This document shows, piece by piece, positions 17,128 to 41,210 of a stretch of 64,000 bases of DNA. Position 1 is the first letter of the stretch; each line of letters opens with the position of its first letter. The position numbers and the translations under genes were made by a program. The stretch is from Nitrososphaerota archaeon. Lineage in GTDB: Archaea; Thermoproteota; Nitrososphaeria_A; Caldarchaeales; Calditenuaceae. The DNA is taken from positions 78,678 through 142,677 of the forward strand of contig JBEPYO010000001.1 of assembly GCA_041641295.1 (NCBI GenBank), given 5' to 3'. The notes below the pieces were generated by a model, which did not search any database, was not told the origin of the DNA, and saw only the letters and a list, made by a program, of their open reading frames with translations.

Positions 17128-17219
17128 GGGGCCGTGGTCTAGCATGGCTATGACGCCAGCCTGGGGAACTACACGGTCCTGAGCGCTGGAGGACGTGGGT
17201 TCAAATCCCACCGGCCCCA
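17128..17219 (+). tRNA. tRNA-Pro (anticodon GGG) containing an intron of about 17 nt in the anticodon loop
   Basis: Acceptor stem GGGGCCG/CGGCCCC with discriminator A. T-arm GTGGG-TTCAAAT-CCCAC. Anticodon stem CCAGC/GCTGG is separated by 24 nt, giving loop 'CTGGGG' plus an intron at about 17166-17182. The 5' end 'GGGGCCGTGG' is like archaeal tRNA-Pro. Confidence 0.65.
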
Positions 17220-17269: not shown

Positions 17270-18361
17270 GTGAATAAATATTTATTTGAAGTGTGGGATA
17301 GAATTTTGAAAGTAATGAGCAGCAGAGAAGAACTTGCCAAAAAATTCCTTGTTAGGAAGTTGAGGCCGATTGAAATAGGTGAGAAAAGTATTAGTCAATT
17401 GCTGGACTCGATGGCTATGACGGGCTTTCAAGGCCGTAGGCTCGGAGAGGTTGTGAAGGTTTGGGAAACGGCATGTAGAACAGAGAATACCGTGATATTC
17501 CTAGGGCTCGCGGGTTCTCTAAGCACGACGGGGCAGAGCGAGATAGTAAAATTCCTCATAAGAAACAGGTTCATCGACGTACTTGTCTCAACCGGTGCAA
17601 ACATAACGGAAGACCTAGTGGAAGCACTTGGCGCCAACTATTACATGGGAGAGCCAAACCTCGACGATTCCGAGCTGTTTAAGGCAGGCATCTATAGATT
17701 CCACGACGTCTTGGTAAGGGATGTAGACTACTTTAAGATGGAAAAGATGCTCGCGGATTTCATGGCGCAGCTTGACCGTACCAAGGTCTATTCTTCAGCC
17801 AAGTTTCTGAATCAGCTTGGGGCTTGGCTTGACGGAAAGGGGGTTAATGGTATTCTGACAGAAGCGTGGAGAAGTGGTGTTCCCGTCTTCTCACCGGCAC
17901 TTGTAGACTCGGGTATGGGGGTAGCATACCTTCTAAACAAGTATCGGCATGGTGAGGGTTTCAAACTCTTGATAGACCATTTCGCCGATTATGAATTAAT
18001 CGTCAAGATAAAGGCGAAATTTGCCGACAGTGCAGCGATCTTTATCGGGGGTGGTGTTCCCAAGGACTTCATACAGCTTGCAGCTGTGGCAGTCGATGTT
18101 CTACTCTCCGGCGACTTATCCAAATACAGGCCTCACAGGTTCGCAGCACAGATAACCACAGACAGCCCCCACTGGGGAGGCCTCTCCGGCGCCACATTGG
18201 ATGAGGCTAAGAGCTGGGGGAAAGAGAGCCCGGACAGCATGACCGTTCAGTGCTTCTGCGACGCCACAATCGGGCTCCCACTCGTGGCTCATGCCCTCTA
18301 CGAGAAGCTAGGGCGAAGAAAAGACCCGCCTGACCTCAGCTGGGTGTTTAAGGAAGGCTAA
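17270..18361 (+). CDS. Deoxyhypusine synthase-like protein, a divergent paralogue. The start may be the internal Met at 17315.
   Basis: DHS fold with 'GGGVPKDF' in place of the canonical GGGxxKHH. The catalytic-Lys region 'EAKSWGKES' is retained. 363 aa. Confidence 0.7.
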   Translation: MNKYLFEVWDRILKVMSSREELAKKFLVRKLRPIEIGEKSISQLLDSMAMTGFQGRRLGEVVKVWETACRTENTVIFLGLAGSLSTTGQSEIVKFLIRNRFIDVLVSTGANITEDLVEALGANYYMGEPNLDDSELFKAGIYRFHDVLVRDVDYFKMEKMLADFMAQLDRTKVYSSAKFLNQLGAWLDGKGVNGILTEAWRSGVPVFSPALVDSGMGVAYLLNKYRHGEGFKLLIDHFADYELIVKIKAKFADSAAIFIGGGVPKDFIQLAAVAVDVLLSGDLSKYRPHRFAAQITTDSPHWGGLSGATLDEAKSWGKESPDSMTVQCFCDATIGLPLVAHALYEKLGRRKDPPDLSWVFKEG

Positions 18362-19311
18362 CCGAGGAGGACAGACGCTAATAGGGGAAGAATCAAGGTG
18401 GCGTCTCCGTAGATTGTGACTTTTCTAGCGTGGGTTTTCAGTTTGCCCCAGCTTATGGCCTCCTTCAGTGGCGCCCCTGTCAGGCTTCCATCCCACTCGT
18501 TCCCGGTCGTGACGTAGACTGCATAGTCTAGGCCACCCCCAAACTGGTTCAGCCACAAGAGGTGATGCTTGCTTATTCCACCCCCTATTATGAGGCCGCC
18601 CCTCCTGACCTCTTTGAAGAGGTTATCGGAGAGCCTGTCATAGTCCCTGAAGAGATTTAGCCTAAAGTCTCGATGCGTTGTGTGAAACATCCAGAGCTGG
18701 GTTCCAGCGGCACCATCCATTATACCGGGGACTACCACGTCCACGTTAGCCTCAGCGGCAGCCCTTAAAATCGACCCCTCTGGAAGACGCCTCCCTATCT
18801 CCCTAGCAAGCTCGATAGTCCCAATCTCTCTCACCCCCTTGTCGTAAAGCTCGTTCAGTAGACCGAGCATGAAGCGCTCAATCGCGAGCCCGTAGTTCTC
18901 CTCAGGCACAATGACCGAGCCGACACGGTGTAGTCCATGCTCACGGAGCTCCCCATCATCCAACTCGAAGGCGCCCTTGTAATAGTTGCCCAGACTCCTT
19001 GCAATGTCATGGTCAATGGTCCCGCAGGTAGTCACCACGTATTTGAAGATTCCTCGCCTTATGATGCTGGCCAAGACGCCTCTTAGACCGGTGGCTGTGA
19101 GGGAGCCTACGAAAGAGAGCCATCGCACACATTCCCGGTCACTAACCATCTCTCTAAGTATTCTGCACCCTTCAGCAAGGTAACTGGCCATAAATCCTCC
19201 CGAGGCTGCGAAATGCTCCACTAGATTGCTTATCGTTGTGTCGGCTGAGAGGGTGTAGTCCTTAACAGGCTCCTCTCCTTTGAAACCGCCCCTCCTATCC
19301 TTATATCTCAC
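18358..19311 (-). CDS. dys: Deoxyhypusine synthase, canonical
   Basis: 'IIGGGISKHHLLWLN' and the catalytic-Lys motif 'EAISWGKLK'. 317 aa. Convergent with the paralogue and overlapping it by 4 nt. Confidence 0.75.
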   Translation of the reverse strand: MRYKDRRGGFKGEEPVKDYTLSADTTISNLVEHFAASGGFMASYLAEGCRILREMVSDRECVRWLSFVGSLTATGLRGVLASIIRRGIFKYVVTTCGTIDHDIARSLGNYYKGAFELDDGELREHGLHRVGSVIVPEENYGLAIERFMLGLLNELYDKGVREIGTIELAREIGRRLPEGSILRAAAEANVDVVVPGIMDGAAGTQLWMFHTTHRDFRLNLFRDYDRLSDNLFKEVRRGGLIIGGGISKHHLLWLNQFGGGLDYAVYVTTGNEWDGSLTGAPLKEAISWGKLKTHARKVTIYGDATLILPLLASVLLG

Positions 19312-19330
19312 GTAAATAGTCTATGCCCGC

Positions 19331-20368
19331 TCATATTTTAGTGGCTGTCCTTCCCTTACGGTAGGACTCAACAATCCTCAGCCAATCCTTTAACCTGATT
19401 TCCATTCCGAACCTGTCCTCCCGTAGCTTCATGTATATGTAGGGGGTCATGAGTAGCCTAAAGTCTCTGAGGTAGTTGAAGCTTGAGTTGTGGACCTTCT
19501 TGATGAACTGGAATATCGTGTAGAAGACTGAAAAGCTCTTAAGGACCTTTTGTGGGTATTGCTCAATCCTCCCGTCTACACTCTGTGAAAGCAGCTCGGC
19601 ACACTGCATACCCGGAATTATCCCCTCTCCAATAACGGGGTGGACAGTACCTATACTCTCCCCAAGCCCAACCACGCCATTGCTGATAATGGGTGCGCAG
19701 AGGTGGGGTGGGGCGATCCTCACAGGACGCCCCACAACATCAATGACCTCGCCGGGGTTTTTTCTGATGAACTCGTCTAGAGCCTCTTTATGCCTATTGA
19801 AGTAGTCGCCAACTCCCACGTGGGCTAGGTTGTTGGATAGGGGAAAGTACCAGAGATATCCGCCTAGGTGGGTTAGTGGCATCAGGTAGAAGTCATCGAT
19901 GGGTGGGCTATCATACTTCACAAGATACTCCACAGTCGGGATGTAGTAGTCGCGGGCTATTCTTGGTAGGAGGGCCCTGTGGAACCCCGTGGCGTCCACT
20001 ATCAAGTCAAAGCCTGTTATCTTTACTTTTTTCACGTCAATGCTATAATATACTTTCAGTCTGCTGTGCATGTCTAGTATGAACTGCTTCTTGTTAAATG
20101 TGCAGAGCCCTTTAAGCTTGATGGAGAATTCACTCTCATCGGGTAGCTTAACGATCATCTCTTTCCCCTCATGGAGAATGTATTCGTCGAAATTCAGGCC
20201 TATACGTCCGGCTAGGCGCCTCATCTCATGTTTACTCGTCCCCCAGGCACATATTGCCCTGAAGTTTTCGGCTTTCTGCCGCTCAAAAACCACGACTTCG
20301 TGGTCACCCTTGATGAGGTTTGCGAAGTAGCTTCCAGCCACTCCCCCGCCCGCGACCGCGACCCTCAC
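19331..20368 (-). CDS. FAD-dependent oxidoreductase, geranylgeranyl reductase family
   Basis: N-terminal 'MRVAVAGGGVAGSYFA' FAD-binding GxGxxG motif and the C-terminal 'GEGIIPGM' family motif. 345 aa. Confidence 0.55.
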   Translation of the reverse strand: MRVAVAGGGVAGSYFANLIKGDHEVVVFERQKAENFRAICAWGTSKHEMRRLAGRIGLNFDEYILHEGKEMIVKLPDESEFSIKLKGLCTFNKKQFILDMHSRLKVYYSIDVKKVKITGFDLIVDATGFHRALLPRIARDYYIPTVEYLVKYDSPPIDDFYLMPLTHLGGYLWYFPLSNNLAHVGVGDYFNRHKEALDEFIRKNPGEVIDVVGRPVRIAPPHLCAPIISNGVVGLGESIGTVHPVIGEGIIPGMQCAELLSQSVDGRIEQYPQKVLKSFSVFYTIFQFIKKVHNSSFNYLRDFRLLMTPYIYMKLREDRFGMEIRLKDWLRIVESYRKGRTATKI

Positions 20369-22517: not shown

Positions 22518-23435
22518 TTGAAACACTTTCTCCAAGTATTTGACGCCTCTAGGAGCGAGCTCCTGAATATTATAGAGCTTGCCCTGAGGTTTAGGCGGGA
22601 TGGTTATACCGGACATCCCTTGCGTGGCAAGGTTATCGCCATGCTCTTCGAAAAACCCTCTACGCGGACTAGAGTCTCGTTTAGCTCCGCCGTCTTAAGG
22701 CTTGGAGGCGAGGTAATCTATCTCCCAGCCTCTGAACTCCAGCTAGCGCGGGGTGAGCCATTAAAAGACACTGCCCGGGTTCTAAACAGATACGTTGATG
22801 CGATAGTCGCGCGGCTTTCATCTCACTCCTCGCTGGAGGAGATTGCAAAGTACTCGGAGAAGCCTGTGATAAACGCTCTCACCAATCTACACCACCCGTG
22901 CCAAGCCTTAGCGGATGTTGCTACGATGTATGAGGAAGCGGGGGGATGGGGGTTCAAGGTTTCATACATTGGAGACTGTGGGAATGTCTGCAGGTCCTTG
23001 GTGCAGATATGCGCATCGCTGGGTATATCAATCTCCGTTGCCTCCCCTCGCAAATATTGGTTCCCATCAGACGAGATTCAGCTGTATAAGGAGGTTGCAT
23101 CGTCGGCAGGCAGCGCGGTAGAGTTTACCGAAGACCCTGAGGAAGCTGTGGCGGGCTCCGACTTCATCTACACGGACGTCTTCGTATCAATGGGAATGGA
23201 GAGCGAGTATGAGGCTAGGCTCCGAGACTTCCTCCCCCGCTACCGCGTGAGCATGAGGCTCTTCGAGAAGGCGAAGCCTGGCGCCAAGTTTATGCACTGT
23301 ATGCCTATCAGGCGGGGAGAGGAGGTGGAGGAGGATGTCGTCGAGTCGAGCCGCTCTATAATATTCCTACAGGCCGAGTATAGGATGCATACGTCTGCCG
23401 CTCTTCTCTTCTCCCTACTGGGAGAGCCTAGCTAG
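22518..23435 (+). CDS. argF: Ornithine carbamoyltransferase-like transcarbamylase
   Basis: Carbamoyl-phosphate site 'STRTRVSF', then 'HHPCQALAD' and 'HCMPIRRGEEV' (OTC-type HCxP rather than the ATCase HPLP). 305 aa. Confidence 0.6.
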   Translation: MKHFLQVFDASRSELLNIIELALRFRRDGYTGHPLRGKVIAMLFEKPSTRTRVSFSSAVLRLGGEVIYLPASELQLARGEPLKDTARVLNRYVDAIVARLSSHSSLEEIAKYSEKPVINALTNLHHPCQALADVATMYEEAGGWGFKVSYIGDCGNVCRSLVQICASLGISISVASPRKYWFPSDEIQLYKEVASSAGSAVEFTEDPEEAVAGSDFIYTDVFVSMGMESEYEARLRDFLPRYRVSMRLFEKAKPGAKFMHCMPIRRGEEVEEDVVESSRSIIFLQAEYRMHTSAALLFSLLGEPS

Positions 23436-28048: not shown

Positions 28049-28447
28049 ATGCAGGTAGAGCAAAAATCGGAAGTTGGAGTAGTAGGGAAGCACGTCTACG
28101 GTAACTTATATGACTGCGATCCAGAAGTATTGGGCGACCTTAAGCTGTTGAAGAAGCTGGTATCTGAGGCCTCCAAGATTGCCAAAATGACGCTGGTCGA
28201 GTTGAGGGGGTGGAGGTTTGGCGGTGAGAAGGGGGGAGTCTCCGTGATAGCCTTGGTGGTGGAGAGCCACCTAGCCCTCCACACGTGGCCGGGCTATAGG
28301 TATGCTACGCTGGACATATTCACATGTGGAGATAAAAGCGACCCCTTCAAGGCCTTTGATTACCTATGTGAGGCTCTTAAGCCTGGCAGTGTCTCTAAGC
28401 ACTATGCTGACCGGTCTTCAGATAGGCAGCAAGCAGCCGTTCCTTGA
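28049..28447 (+). CDS. speH: Pyruvoyl-dependent S-adenosylmethionine decarboxylase proenzyme, SpeH type. It could instead be the crenarchaeal arginine-decarboxylase paralogue of the same fold.
   Basis: '[12 protein letters not shown]' and '[24 protein letters not shown]' match the SpeH/SpeD signature including the self-cleavage region. 132 aa. Confidence 0.75.
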
Positions 28448-41087: not shown

Positions 41088-41210
41088 TGTCCCGGCGGCA
41101 GGATTTGAACCTGCGGCCCTCCGGTTTCTGTTAGCCCGGTAGGCTGGCAAAGGCGCGGCAGGATGCCGGCCTCTACAGCCGGATGCTCTACCAGGCTGAG
41201 CTACGCCGGG
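41088..41210 (-). tRNA. tRNA-Tyr (anticodon GTA) with an intron of about 46 nt
   Basis: On the minus strand, the 5' end reads 'CCCGGCGTAGCTCAGCCTGGTAGAGC' (the C1:G72 pair typical of archaeal tRNA-Tyr). Anticodon stem TCCGG/CCGGA with loop CTGTAG|intron|A. T-arm GCAGG-TTCAAAT-CCTGC, acceptor 3' CGCCGGG plus A. A TATA-like 'TTTAATA' lies about 25 bp upstream at forward 41238-41250. Confidence 0.7.

Follow-up and report, generated by a model that had tools for sequence, protein, structure and literature searches.

Hypusination is an essential modification of (a/e)IF5A; in Archaea, the polyamine that serves as donor varies, and we know of no homologue of DOHH. For Sulfolobus, a single gene for deoxyhypusine synthase (DHS) is known. 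In vitro, the S. solfataricus enzyme uses spermidine and NAD to deoxyhypusinate aIF5A (PMC6105217; Bassani et al. 2018). In Haloferax, DHS is inactive with spermidine and agmatinase is essential, and a transfer of agmatine to aIF5A has been suggested (PMC5178350). All bacterial SpeY enzymes tested couple agmatine, a type of cluster made of SpeD-like, DHS-like and agmatinase genes has been shown experimentally to make homospermidine via G44G, and the same study asks whether there are archaea with both agmatine-dependent and spermidine-dependent DHS proteins (PMC13625781; Li et al. 2026). For the related CdmS, the proposed ligands of the guanidinium group are Ser67, Glu293, Glu136 and Asp143 in that paper's numbering (PMC10981699). 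Our search of the literature for pairs of archaeal DHS paralogues returned no cases beyond those of trypanosomatids, Entamoeba and Haloferax.

We analyzed a stretch of 64,000 nucleotides (the window) from an uncultured hot-spring archaeon of the Aigarchaeota, in which two DHS-family genes, here called A and B, lie tail to tail (Table 1). As described in an earlier reading made from the sequence only (the sequence-only reading), both open reading frames are present and convergent. Both match the Pfam family DS over their full length (PF01916; 289.5 bits for A and 318.3 bits for B, with a cut-off of 27), which places them in the superfamily. The SWGK motifs of both copies, GGGISKHH in B and GGGVPKDF in A are also as that reading had described them. 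The 4-nt overlap that it described is real, but it involves two stop codons and no coding sequence. The length of 363 aa that it gave for A corresponds to the longest open reading frame (17270..18361, from GTG 17270). However, A probably starts at ATG 17315, since its orthologues are all around 348 aa long and an A/T-rich stretch, a possible archaeal promoter of A, lies between the end of a tRNA (17219) and this codon.

Table 1. Features of the A/B locus, in positions of the window; human residue numbers refer to aligned positions in human DHS.
Feature	Position	Strand	Remarks
Copy A, DHS-family, NF002006/PRK00805-type 'KD' clade	17315..18361	+	348 aa from the probable start, ATG 17315
Copy B, putative canonical crenarchaeal-type deoxyhypusine synthase	18358..19311	-	317 aa
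A/T-rich TATA-box-like stretch AAATATTTATTTG	17276..17288	+	~27-39 nt 5' of ATG 17315
CTAA, overlapping stop codons of A and B	18358..18361	.	TAA (+, A), TAG (-, B)
A: LAGSLSTTG	17507..17533	+	AGS aligned with human T104-S105-N106
A: GGGVPKDF, glycine-rich NAD loop, then Lys250 and Asp251	18047..18070	+	human K287, H288
A: PHWGGLSG	18167..18190	+	Trp287 = human D313, Gly289 = S315, Leu290 = D316
A: SWGK with catalytic Lys303	18212..18223	+	human K329
B: GGGISKHH	18562..18585	-	human K287, H288, H289 all conserved
B: SWGK with catalytic Lys290	18442..18453	-	from sequence comparison

Near-identity of the two copies, as in a recent duplication, or decay of A into a pseudogene with a damaged NAD site were the two outcomes under which the sequence-only reading was to be abandoned. 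Neither is observed. A and B are 28% identical, dN/dS is 0.063 for A (against L001, a close relative) and 0.071 for B, and A retains the NAD-site residues E137, D138, D238, the GGG loop and D342, as well as the catalytic Lys. The best NCBIfam model of A is NF002006 (the PRK00805 'deoxyhypusine synthase' equivalog), where its 395.7 bits stay under the trusted cut-off of 434, as might be expected of a decaying or recently duplicated, redundant copy. We reject this explanation, which has next to no chance of being right given the values above, the intact open reading frame, the orthologues of A at 45-91% identity across phyla, whose active-site positions are conserved in 79/79 clade members, and a fold that is predicted with confidence (AlphaFold pLDDT of 94.2; DHS fold, with TM of 0.74-0.87 against solved DHS structures). 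A and B are old, intact paralogues under purifying selection, neither recent duplicates nor pseudogenes.

To judge from sequence comparison, copy B is the orthologue of the Sulfolobus DHS. It scores 412.4 bits on NF002294, the model of Sulfolobus-type DHS (cut-off of 350), matches the S. islandicus DHS of known structure (8PUT) with E = 6e-88, and groups with it at 100% bootstrap. Together with the human and P. horikoshii proteins and Haloferax HVO_B0182, they form a clade (92-93% bootstrap) that we call the His288 clade. The active-site residues K329, H288, W327, E323 and D313 (human numbering) are all present in B, and human E137 is replaced by His, as it is in the Sulfolobus DHS. The best reading of B, by analogy with this orthologue, is a spermidine-type aIF5A DHS, an NAD- and spermidine-dependent enzyme that would modify the conserved lysine of aIF5A with a 4-aminobutyl group.

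Copy A, on the evidence of its alignments, is a member of a separate and uncharacterised clade (76-84% bootstrap). On NF002006, its orthologues in Bathyarchaeia, Nitrososphaerales and Ignisphaera pass the cut-off (452-494 bits) and the bacterial ones reach 405-430 bits. The bacterial members of the clade, found in Thermodesulfobacteriota, Dadabacteria and CPR, are 45-50% identical to A. The 'equivalog' thus labels as deoxyhypusine synthase a large clade that spans archaea and these three bacterial groups. To our knowledge, bacteria lack aIF5A; hence, this name cannot be right for the bacterial members.

Among characterised enzymes, the best BLASTP scores of A are with T. thermophilus CdmS and a cyanobacterial SpeY (178-182 bits), ahead of human DHS (116 bits) and of B (83-97 bits). 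CdmS passes the SpeY/CdmS model NF002699 (545 bits, cut-off of 500), as do the SpeY of Sphingomonas (564) and Trichormus (592), and its second-best model is NF002006, the family of A; A itself has 223.3 bits on NF002699. The Ser of the AGS motif of A aligns with human N106 and with CdmS 'Ser67', a predicted guanidinium ligand, and the four proposed ligands of CdmS have their predicted equivalents in this Ser and in E297, D136 and E143 of A, the position of D136 being Glu in 77/79 clade members. In human numbering, acidic residues at 173 and 180 belong to the proposed ligands along with this Ser. Taken together, the scores, the indels and the predicted guanidinium-binding residues put A nearer to the agmatine-coupling SpeY/CdmS enzymes than to its neighbor B. 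The tree contains a split that groups A with CdmS apart from the His288 clade, at 42-48% bootstrap and with deep nodes unsupported.

The substitutions of A were examined across 79 members of its type. Human His288 is Asp, and human Asp313 is Trp, in 79/79; Trp287, Gly289 and Leu290 of PHWGGLSG are likewise each found in 79/79. We discarded the replacement of His288 as a sign of a dead enzyme: Asp is invariant in the clade, and Asn takes this place both in proven SpeY/CdmS and in sequences that pass the DHS model NF002630 (PRK02301). The replacement of Asp316 by Leu was discarded as a hallmark of SpeY, because Leu is also found in B and in the DHS of Sulfolobus and P. horikoshii. Human Asn173 is a weak marker of a protein acceptor, being Glu in B and Phe in the Sulfolobus DHS. 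Some of these observations speak against an agmatine-type function of A, namely its 223 bits on NF002699, the Asp288 and Trp313 that it has instead of Asn and Asp, and the 42-48% bootstrap of its grouping with CdmS.

Comparing 80 related loci, we found A and B directly adjacent in 27, all from Aigarchaeota and Bathyarchaeia, so the pair does recur in related genomes, a point that the sequence-only reading had wished to see checked. The paired genes either converge or stand in tandem, separated by -26 to +16 nt, and 11 other pairs have the [CT]TA[AG] stop overlap of 4 nt that is seen here. Given these numbers, the arrangement can hardly be due to chance. Across the paired loci, A-A and B-B distances are strongly correlated (r = 0.96), with means of 0.36 and 0.37. 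Our best account of these data is that A and B diverged long ago within the DHS family, have been inherited vertically together as a pair, and serve different functions.

Very tight adjacency in two orientations, and divergence at equal and correlated rates, could also be expected if A and B formed a heteromeric DHS, as in trypanosomatids or Entamoeba, with A or B acting as a supporting or regulatory subunit. The active sites of DHS are built across a dimer interface, and T. brucei DHSc/DHSp provides a precedent. We nevertheless regard a heteromer as improbable. The catalytic Lys and the NAD-site residues are present in both copies, which gives neither the look of a dead subunit. Each also occurs without its partner: 40 loci with sufficient space carry A but no B beside it, A is also found in bacteria, and B is on its own in Nitrososphaerales and in other Aigarchaeota. 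Moreover, correlated distances are expected from co-inheritance alone.

The sequence-only reading had argued from polyamine genes in the vicinity. Their identities hold: the gene at 28049 is of the SpeD family (it passes the AdoMetDC model TIGR03330) and the one at 22518 encodes an ornithine carbamoyltransferase. The argument drawn from them is not supported. Unrelated housekeeping genes separate them from the pair, at distances of ~8.7 kb (SpeD-family gene) and ~3.2 kb (carbamoyltransferase gene), and a SpeD-like match at a similar distance occurs only in the close relative L001 (91% identity). A functional link between these genes and the pair finds no support in these data. Apart from the DHS cluster itself, the groups of paired loci have only 2-4 incidental gene clusters in common, and none of the 27 paired loci has a matching agmatinase or CPR-type SpeD-like gene beside the pair. 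No agmatinase or spermidine-synthase signature was found in the window.

Elsewhere in the clade, an agmatinase gene (TIGR01230) is directly beside A in six loci, from CPR and DPANN members, and three of these, all bacterial (CPR-type), have a SpeD-like/A/agmatinase cluster, the type for which synthesis of homospermidine via G44G has been demonstrated (PMC13625781). The adjacency in DPANN could equally reflect an agmatine-to-aIF5A route of the Haloferax type (PMC5178350). The arrangement typical of SpeY, with arginine decarboxylase plus agmatinase or iminohydrolase, is not the one found at A: no gene for agmatinase or arginine decarboxylase adjoins A in this window, nor in any Aigarchaeota or Bathyarchaeia locus, an observation that also speaks against the agmatine reading. 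A search for aIF5A genes with the motif G[KR]HG.A[KR] gave none in the window, in the 80 related loci or in loci L081-L084.

The reading that we favor, tentatively and as a little short of an even chance, is that B is a spermidine-type aIF5A DHS and A an agmatine-type enzyme, the acceptor of A being either a second agmatine or aIF5A. In this reaction, NAD would oxidise the primary amine of agmatine, as in SpeY/CdmS, the resulting 4-guanidinobutyl unit would be carried as an imine on Lys303, and it would then be passed to the acceptor amine and reduced. We think a second agmatine the most likely acceptor. The product would then be N1,N9-bis(guanidino)homospermidine, and a ureohydrolase whose gene lies elsewhere may convert it into homospermidine. 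This polyamine could in turn be used by DHS enzymes as an aminobutyl donor; human DHS can do so (PMC9992855). Such a use of homospermidine by DHS could account for the persistence of A beside B, and it is in this sense that we infer a metabolic coupling of the two.

The sequence-only reading held that one aIF5A needs one DHS and that the divergent copy may thus have another substrate. The premise does not exclude A from acting on aIF5A, as the A type is the annotated DHS in cultured Desulfurococcales (Ignisphaera, Desulfurococcus, Thermogladius), and in MAGs of Korarchaeota and Nezhaarchaeota as well. What stands of the proposal is that A is old, intact and functionally distinct, with a different substrate probable; that its target is other than aIF5A does not follow. 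A may also be a true aIF5A-modifying synthase that works alongside B as its isozyme, with agmatine or spermidine as donor; we consider this possible though less probable than the favored reading. In its agmatine variant, guanidinobutyl-lysine would be trimmed by a ureohydrolase to deoxyhypusine, as in the Haloferax model, for which the Haloferax DHS and essential agmatinase are a precedent (PMC5178350). A would be the sole DHS of lineages that lack B, and bacteria would have recruited a side reaction on free amines.

Besides these annotations, several features of the clade are consistent with such an isozyme. Tyr176, which human DHS needs in order to hypusinate, is present in 79/79 A-type proteins, and the NF002630 sequences mentioned above show that loss of His288 does not exclude DHS function. 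If the genomes of cultured Desulfurococcales have no B type, their A-type enzymes must modify aIF5A. Overlapping convergent ends could also make the expression of two isozymes mutually exclusive; yet the tandem A/B arrangement in six Bathyarchaeia loci, with gaps of 3-16 nt, suggests co-expression and not alternation. Other data weigh against an isozyme. Bacterial members, which live without aIF5A, retain nearly all conserved residues: when archaeal B-linked members of the A clade are compared with the bacterial and DPANN ones, 129 conserved columns have the same residue in both sets, and just 5 conserved columns differ. There is no aIF5A gene within 10 kb of A in any scanned locus. Finally, the residue with which human DHS touches the eIF5A loop, Asn173, is replaced by Glu or Asp in A, as it is in CdmS, although B also has Glu.

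The locus provides a concrete test case for the question of Li et al., as it joins a His288-type and an Asp288-type protein that are co-inherited and abutting in Aigarchaeota and Bathyarchaeia. A and B might be an archaeal pair of agmatine-type and spermidine-type DHS, ancient TACK paralogues side by side, with A on the lineage from which bacterial SpeY arose and B on the one that includes eukaryotic DHS, and together allowing hypusination from either donor. We see this broader scenario as rather unlikely on present evidence; if true, aIF5A would be hypusinated from agmatine-derived homospermidine or from spermidine. In the family at large, donor specificity may be predictable from a simple residue signature: His or Asn/Asp at 288, Tyr or Gln at 305, and AG or GA at 132-133.

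Compared with known systems, B shares with the Sulfolobus DHS (8PUT) the KHH motif, D313, S315, L316 and the His at human E137, and differs in being abutted by a divergent DHS-family gene. Haloferax volcanii also has two DHS homologues, HVO_2297 (chromosomal, in a cluster with aIF5A and agmatinase) and HVO_B0182 (on plasmid pHV3), but these are unlinked, unlike A and B. The agmatine-dependent route has been proposed for the chromosomal HVO_2297, whose sequence lay outside our comparison, while HVO_B0182 is a His288 (KHH) protein of the PRK03971 family, distinct from PRK00805 (A) and PRK01221 (B). Trypanosomatid DHSc and DHSp are, as here, two divergent paralogues in one organism. However, each of those two has an incomplete active site and depends on the other, whereas A and B are complete (both have the catalytic Lys, D238, the GGG loop and D342) and occur separately elsewhere. 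Plant homospermidine synthase is a DHS duplicate with a small-molecule acceptor, and enzymes of this kind were the analogue offered by the sequence-only reading. It is a poor match: the plant enzymes are recent duplicates that use spermidine, keep KHH, D243 and D316 and sit with the His288 clade, whereas A is ancient, has V203, D251 and L290 in place of D243, H288 and D316, and falls outside that clade.

SpeY/CdmS (T. thermophilus TTHA1570; NF002699, 1,9-bis(guanidino)-5-aza-nonane synthase) is closer to A. The two differ at positions 288 and 313, as given above, and A is linked here to a DHS gene instead of agmatine-pathway genes. They have in common the DHS fold and the catalytic Lys of SWGK, acidic residues at human 173 and 180, and Leu316, as well as a set of features that B and human DHS do not have: AGS at 104-106, GA at 132-133, D168, an acidic residue at 173, Phe289, Q305, the absence of His288, two insertions after GGGVPK, and a C-terminal tail. 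The SpeD-like/DHS-like/agmatinase clusters of SpeY/CdmS are also found around members of the A clade in CPR bacteria.

The two convergent genes of the deoxyhypusine synthase (DHS) family, A on the plus strand and B on the minus strand, are listed below with the other features of the window. The motifs quoted for them in the sequence-only reading are indeed found, namely GGGVPKDF and SWGK in A, and GGGISKHH and SWGK in B. The 4-nt overlap is also present, but consists of nothing but the two stop codons (CTAA). The 363-aa length attributed to A matches an ORF that begins at GTG 17270, and the public database copy of the protein (P0001) has this same length. However, the true start is probably ATG 17315, since close orthologues are all ~348 aa long and a TATA-like stretch lies between the two codons, and the 363-aa start call (17270-17314) is probably over-extended.

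Features located in the window
Feature	Position	Strand	Details
Putatively intron-containing tRNA	17128-17219	+	Rfam; 92 nt; ~95 nt upstream of A
ORF A	17270..18361	+	Pfam PF01916 (DS) end to end, 289.5 bits
A/T-rich TATA-like stretch	17276-17288
ORF B	18358..19311	-	Pfam PF01916 (DS) end to end, 318.3 bits
Second tRNA	41090-41210	-	Rfam; 121 nt

Neither copy is decaying. When the window is compared with a closely related locus (L001), where both proteins are ~91% identical to those of the window, A has a dN/dS of 0.063 and B one of 0.071 (dS 0.7-0.9). AlphaFold predicts A with confidence (pLDDT 94.2), and the model superimposes on solved DHS structures with TM scores of 0.74-0.87. The divergent copy is thus no pseudogene, and with only 28% identity between A and B they are not near-identical recent duplicates either.

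Several comparisons indicate that B is an ordinary DHS. It exceeds the cut-off of the NCBIfam equivalog NF002294 (412 bits vs 350), matches the Sulfolobus islandicus DHS structure 8PUT (E = 6e-88), and groups with this protein in 100% of neighbour-joining (NJ) bootstraps. Together with the human and Pyrococcus horikoshii DHS and the Haloferax plasmid protein HVO_B0182, they form a clade (92-93% support) in which every member has Lys-His at human positions 287-288, Tyr305, Asp313, and Ser315. In vitro, the S. solfataricus orthologue of B uses spermidine and NAD to deoxyhypusinate aIF5A, with which it also co-purifies (PMC6105217).

A falls into another clade, which is uncharacterised. The model that fits it best, NF002006 (PRK00805, under the name "deoxyhypusine synthase"), gives 395.7 bits, under the cut-off of 434, and no close solved structure was found (best match E = 3e-30). 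The nearest named protein (90% identity) comes from a Calditenuaceae MAG, and the source organism is assigned to Aigarchaeota/Caldarchaeales by its closest protein matches. When one genome per GTDB species was scanned, 80 loci were found to encode relatives with 44-91% identity. The archaeal ones are from Aigarchaeota, Bathyarchaeia, Nitrososphaerales, Methanomethylicia, Ignisphaera, Hadarchaeota, Thermoplasmatota, Aenigmatarchaeota, and Micrarchaeota, and the bacterial ones from Thermodesulfobacteriota, Dadabacteria, and several CPR lineages. Relatives from the cultured Ignisphaera aggregans, Desulfurococcus amylolyticus, and Thermogladius calderae came from a separate search of proteins. Relative to human DHS, all 79 members taken from these loci for the residue signature show His288->Asp, Tyr305->Gln, Asp313->Trp, Ser315->Gly, and Asp316->Leu, and all keep Glu137, Asp138, Asp238, the GGG loop, Glu323, Trp327, and Lys329; Asp342 is retained in 78 and is Glu in one. 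The NJ bootstrap of the clade is 76-84% (two alignments), and bacterial members nest with Aenigmatarchaeota (98%). The clade is carried by related bacterial loci (L033, L035, L036, L039, L041, L043, L044, L052-L055, L072), and in eight Thermodesulfobacteriota/Dadabacteria loci the gene directly follows leuS. Four bacterial proteins were scanned, and NF002006 fitted each of them best (405-430 bits, slightly below the cut-off); its name is probably too specific.

In the DS family as a whole, itself small (1818 clusters at 50% identity), most relatives outside the His288 clade have Asn at position 288 (GGGVPKN[FY] or GGGVPRNW), including sequences passing the DHS model NF002630 and bona fide SpeY proteins. 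Among the agmatine-coupling enzymes of this fold, Thermus thermophilus CdmS joins two agmatines and has no activity on spermidine or putrescine (PMC10981699). Its glycine loop is GGGVPKNF, whereas that of A is GGGVPKDF. CdmS passes the SpeY/CdmS model NF002699, and its second-best model is NF002006, the family of A. BLASTP of A yields 178-182 bits with CdmS and one cyanobacterial SpeY, 116 with human DHS, and 83-97 with B. Unlike B and human DHS, A shares with CdmS/SpeY AGS at 104-106, GA at 132-133, Asp168, an acidic residue at 173, Phe289, Gln305, two insertions after GGGVPK, and a C-terminal tail. The proposed guanidinium ligands of CdmS are Ser67, Glu136, Asp143, and Glu293 (PMC10981699). 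The paper's residue numbers run 5 ahead of the sequence that its supplementary figure shows. With this shift (+5) corrected, the ligands fall on conserved positions in A, namely the Ser of AGS, Asp136 (mostly Glu across the clade), Glu143, and Glu297. We rejected as diagnostic the Leu at human position 316 stressed by the CdmS authors (PMC10981699), as B and other archaeal DHS proteins also have it.

We consider, with slightly less than even confidence, that B is a spermidine-type aIF5A DHS and A an agmatine-type, SpeY/CdmS-like enzyme whose likeliest acceptor is a second agmatine. The suggestion that the divergent copy uses another substrate is probably right. A would oxidise agmatine in an NAD-dependent step, an imine would form on its Lys303, and transfer to the acceptor and reduction would follow, giving homospermidine if the acceptor is a second agmatine. 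DHS is known to accept homospermidine as another aminobutyl donor (PMC9992855), which would rationalise the linkage of A to B.

Bacteria are not known to have aIF5A, yet between B-linked archaeal A and bacterial/DPANN A, 129 columns are conserved and identical and 5 are conserved but different, which speaks for a common chemistry of the two groups. DHS enzymes do have a small-molecule side reaction, so that a protein-modifying archaeal A could serve unchanged as a bacterial polyamine synthase. The main rival, that A itself modifies aIF5A as in the agmatine route proposed for Haloferax (PMC5178350), seems less likely to us. In six loci of CPR bacteria and DPANN archaea, an agmatinase gene (TIGR01230) directly adjoins the A-type gene; three of the six, all of them bacterial (CPR-type), also have a divergent SpeD-like gene ahead of the A-type gene. 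Li et al. showed that such a SpeD-like/DHS-like/agmatinase layout yields homospermidine via bis(guanidino)homospermidine (PMC13625781).

The pair recurs in related genomes, with A directly beside B in 27 of the 80 loci: 4 in Aigarchaeota (all convergent), 16 convergent and 6 tandem (one strand) in Bathyarchaeia, and L074, a 2.7-kb contig binned as Flavobacteriaceae. The latter carries an archaeal-type pair with a 4-nt stop overlap, and most likely comes from an archaeon and was mis-binned into a bacterial MAG. The gaps between A and B are -26 to +16 nt, and the exact stop overlap of the window ([CT]TA[AG]) is repeated in eleven loci. Beyond A and B, the paired loci of Aigarchaeota share only 1-2 gene clusters, incidental and in single Aigarchaeota loci, with either Bathyarchaeia group, and the two Bathyarchaeia groups share four. 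A-A and B-B distances over paired loci are tightly correlated (r = 0.96) with equal mean divergence: A and B have been co-inherited. Linkage is not strict, as adjacent B is absent from 40 loci with enough flanking sequence, and B is solitary in other Aigarchaeota and in Nitrososphaerales. A trypanosomatid-style heteromer of A and B is unlikely, because neither copy is catalytically incomplete and each is also found without the other.

In convergent Bathyarchaeia loci (L037, L038, L042, L045, L046, L051, L058-L061, L063, L069, L070, L075, L079), B lies downstream, on the same strand, of genes for an RLAN-domain protein (PF14401) and then a RimK-like ATP-grasp ligase (PF08443). These lie ~1-3.5 kb downstream of A, the three genes being contiguous in most such loci, and may point to one more DHS-linked step, carried out by an amide ligase. 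The stand-alone B of Nitrososphaerales (L088-L090) adjoins an inositol-1-phosphate synthase gene and a gene of the CN_hydrolase family that may encode an N-carbamoylputrescine amidohydrolase.

Within the window, the pair is surrounded by housekeeping genes (archease, RNA methyltransferase, homoserine-kinase-like GHMP kinase, geranylgeranyl-reductase-like protein, UMP kinase, aRF1, ribosomal protein L10e, and others). B starts ~20 nt past the stop of the same-strand geranylgeranyl-reductase-like gene (19331-20368; region 19311-19333), and may be co-transcribed with it and pyrH. The polyamine-related genes pointed out nearby are both real, but the OTCase (22518) is 3.2 kb and the AdoMetDC-family gene (28049) 8.7 kb from the pair, and neither has a specific association with it. 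No agmatinase, spermidine-synthase signature, or aIF5A gene was found within the window. The two tRNAs (Rfam 56.9 and 57.5 bits) were missed by ARAGORN, and their lengths suggest archaeal introns.

We found no description of a conserved archaeal A-B pair or of the Asp288/Trp313 clade in the literature searched. Li et al. (2026) ask whether archaea encode agmatine- plus spermidine-dependent DHS proteins (PMC13625781). The A-B locus is a direct candidate answer, testable by their published assays, and of relevance to specialists in polyamines and translation-factor modification. A DHS homologue also occurs on haloarchaeal megaplasmids, in H. volcanii pHV3 (L086, 3914-4888) and in some 19 further plasmid records from haloarchaea; the pHV3 protein, HVO_B0182, is of the KHH, PRK03971 type and encoded beside an amino-acid racemase gene. 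Haloferax is a known case of an archaeon with two DHS homologues; its two genes are unlinked and probably belong to other subfamilies than A and B.
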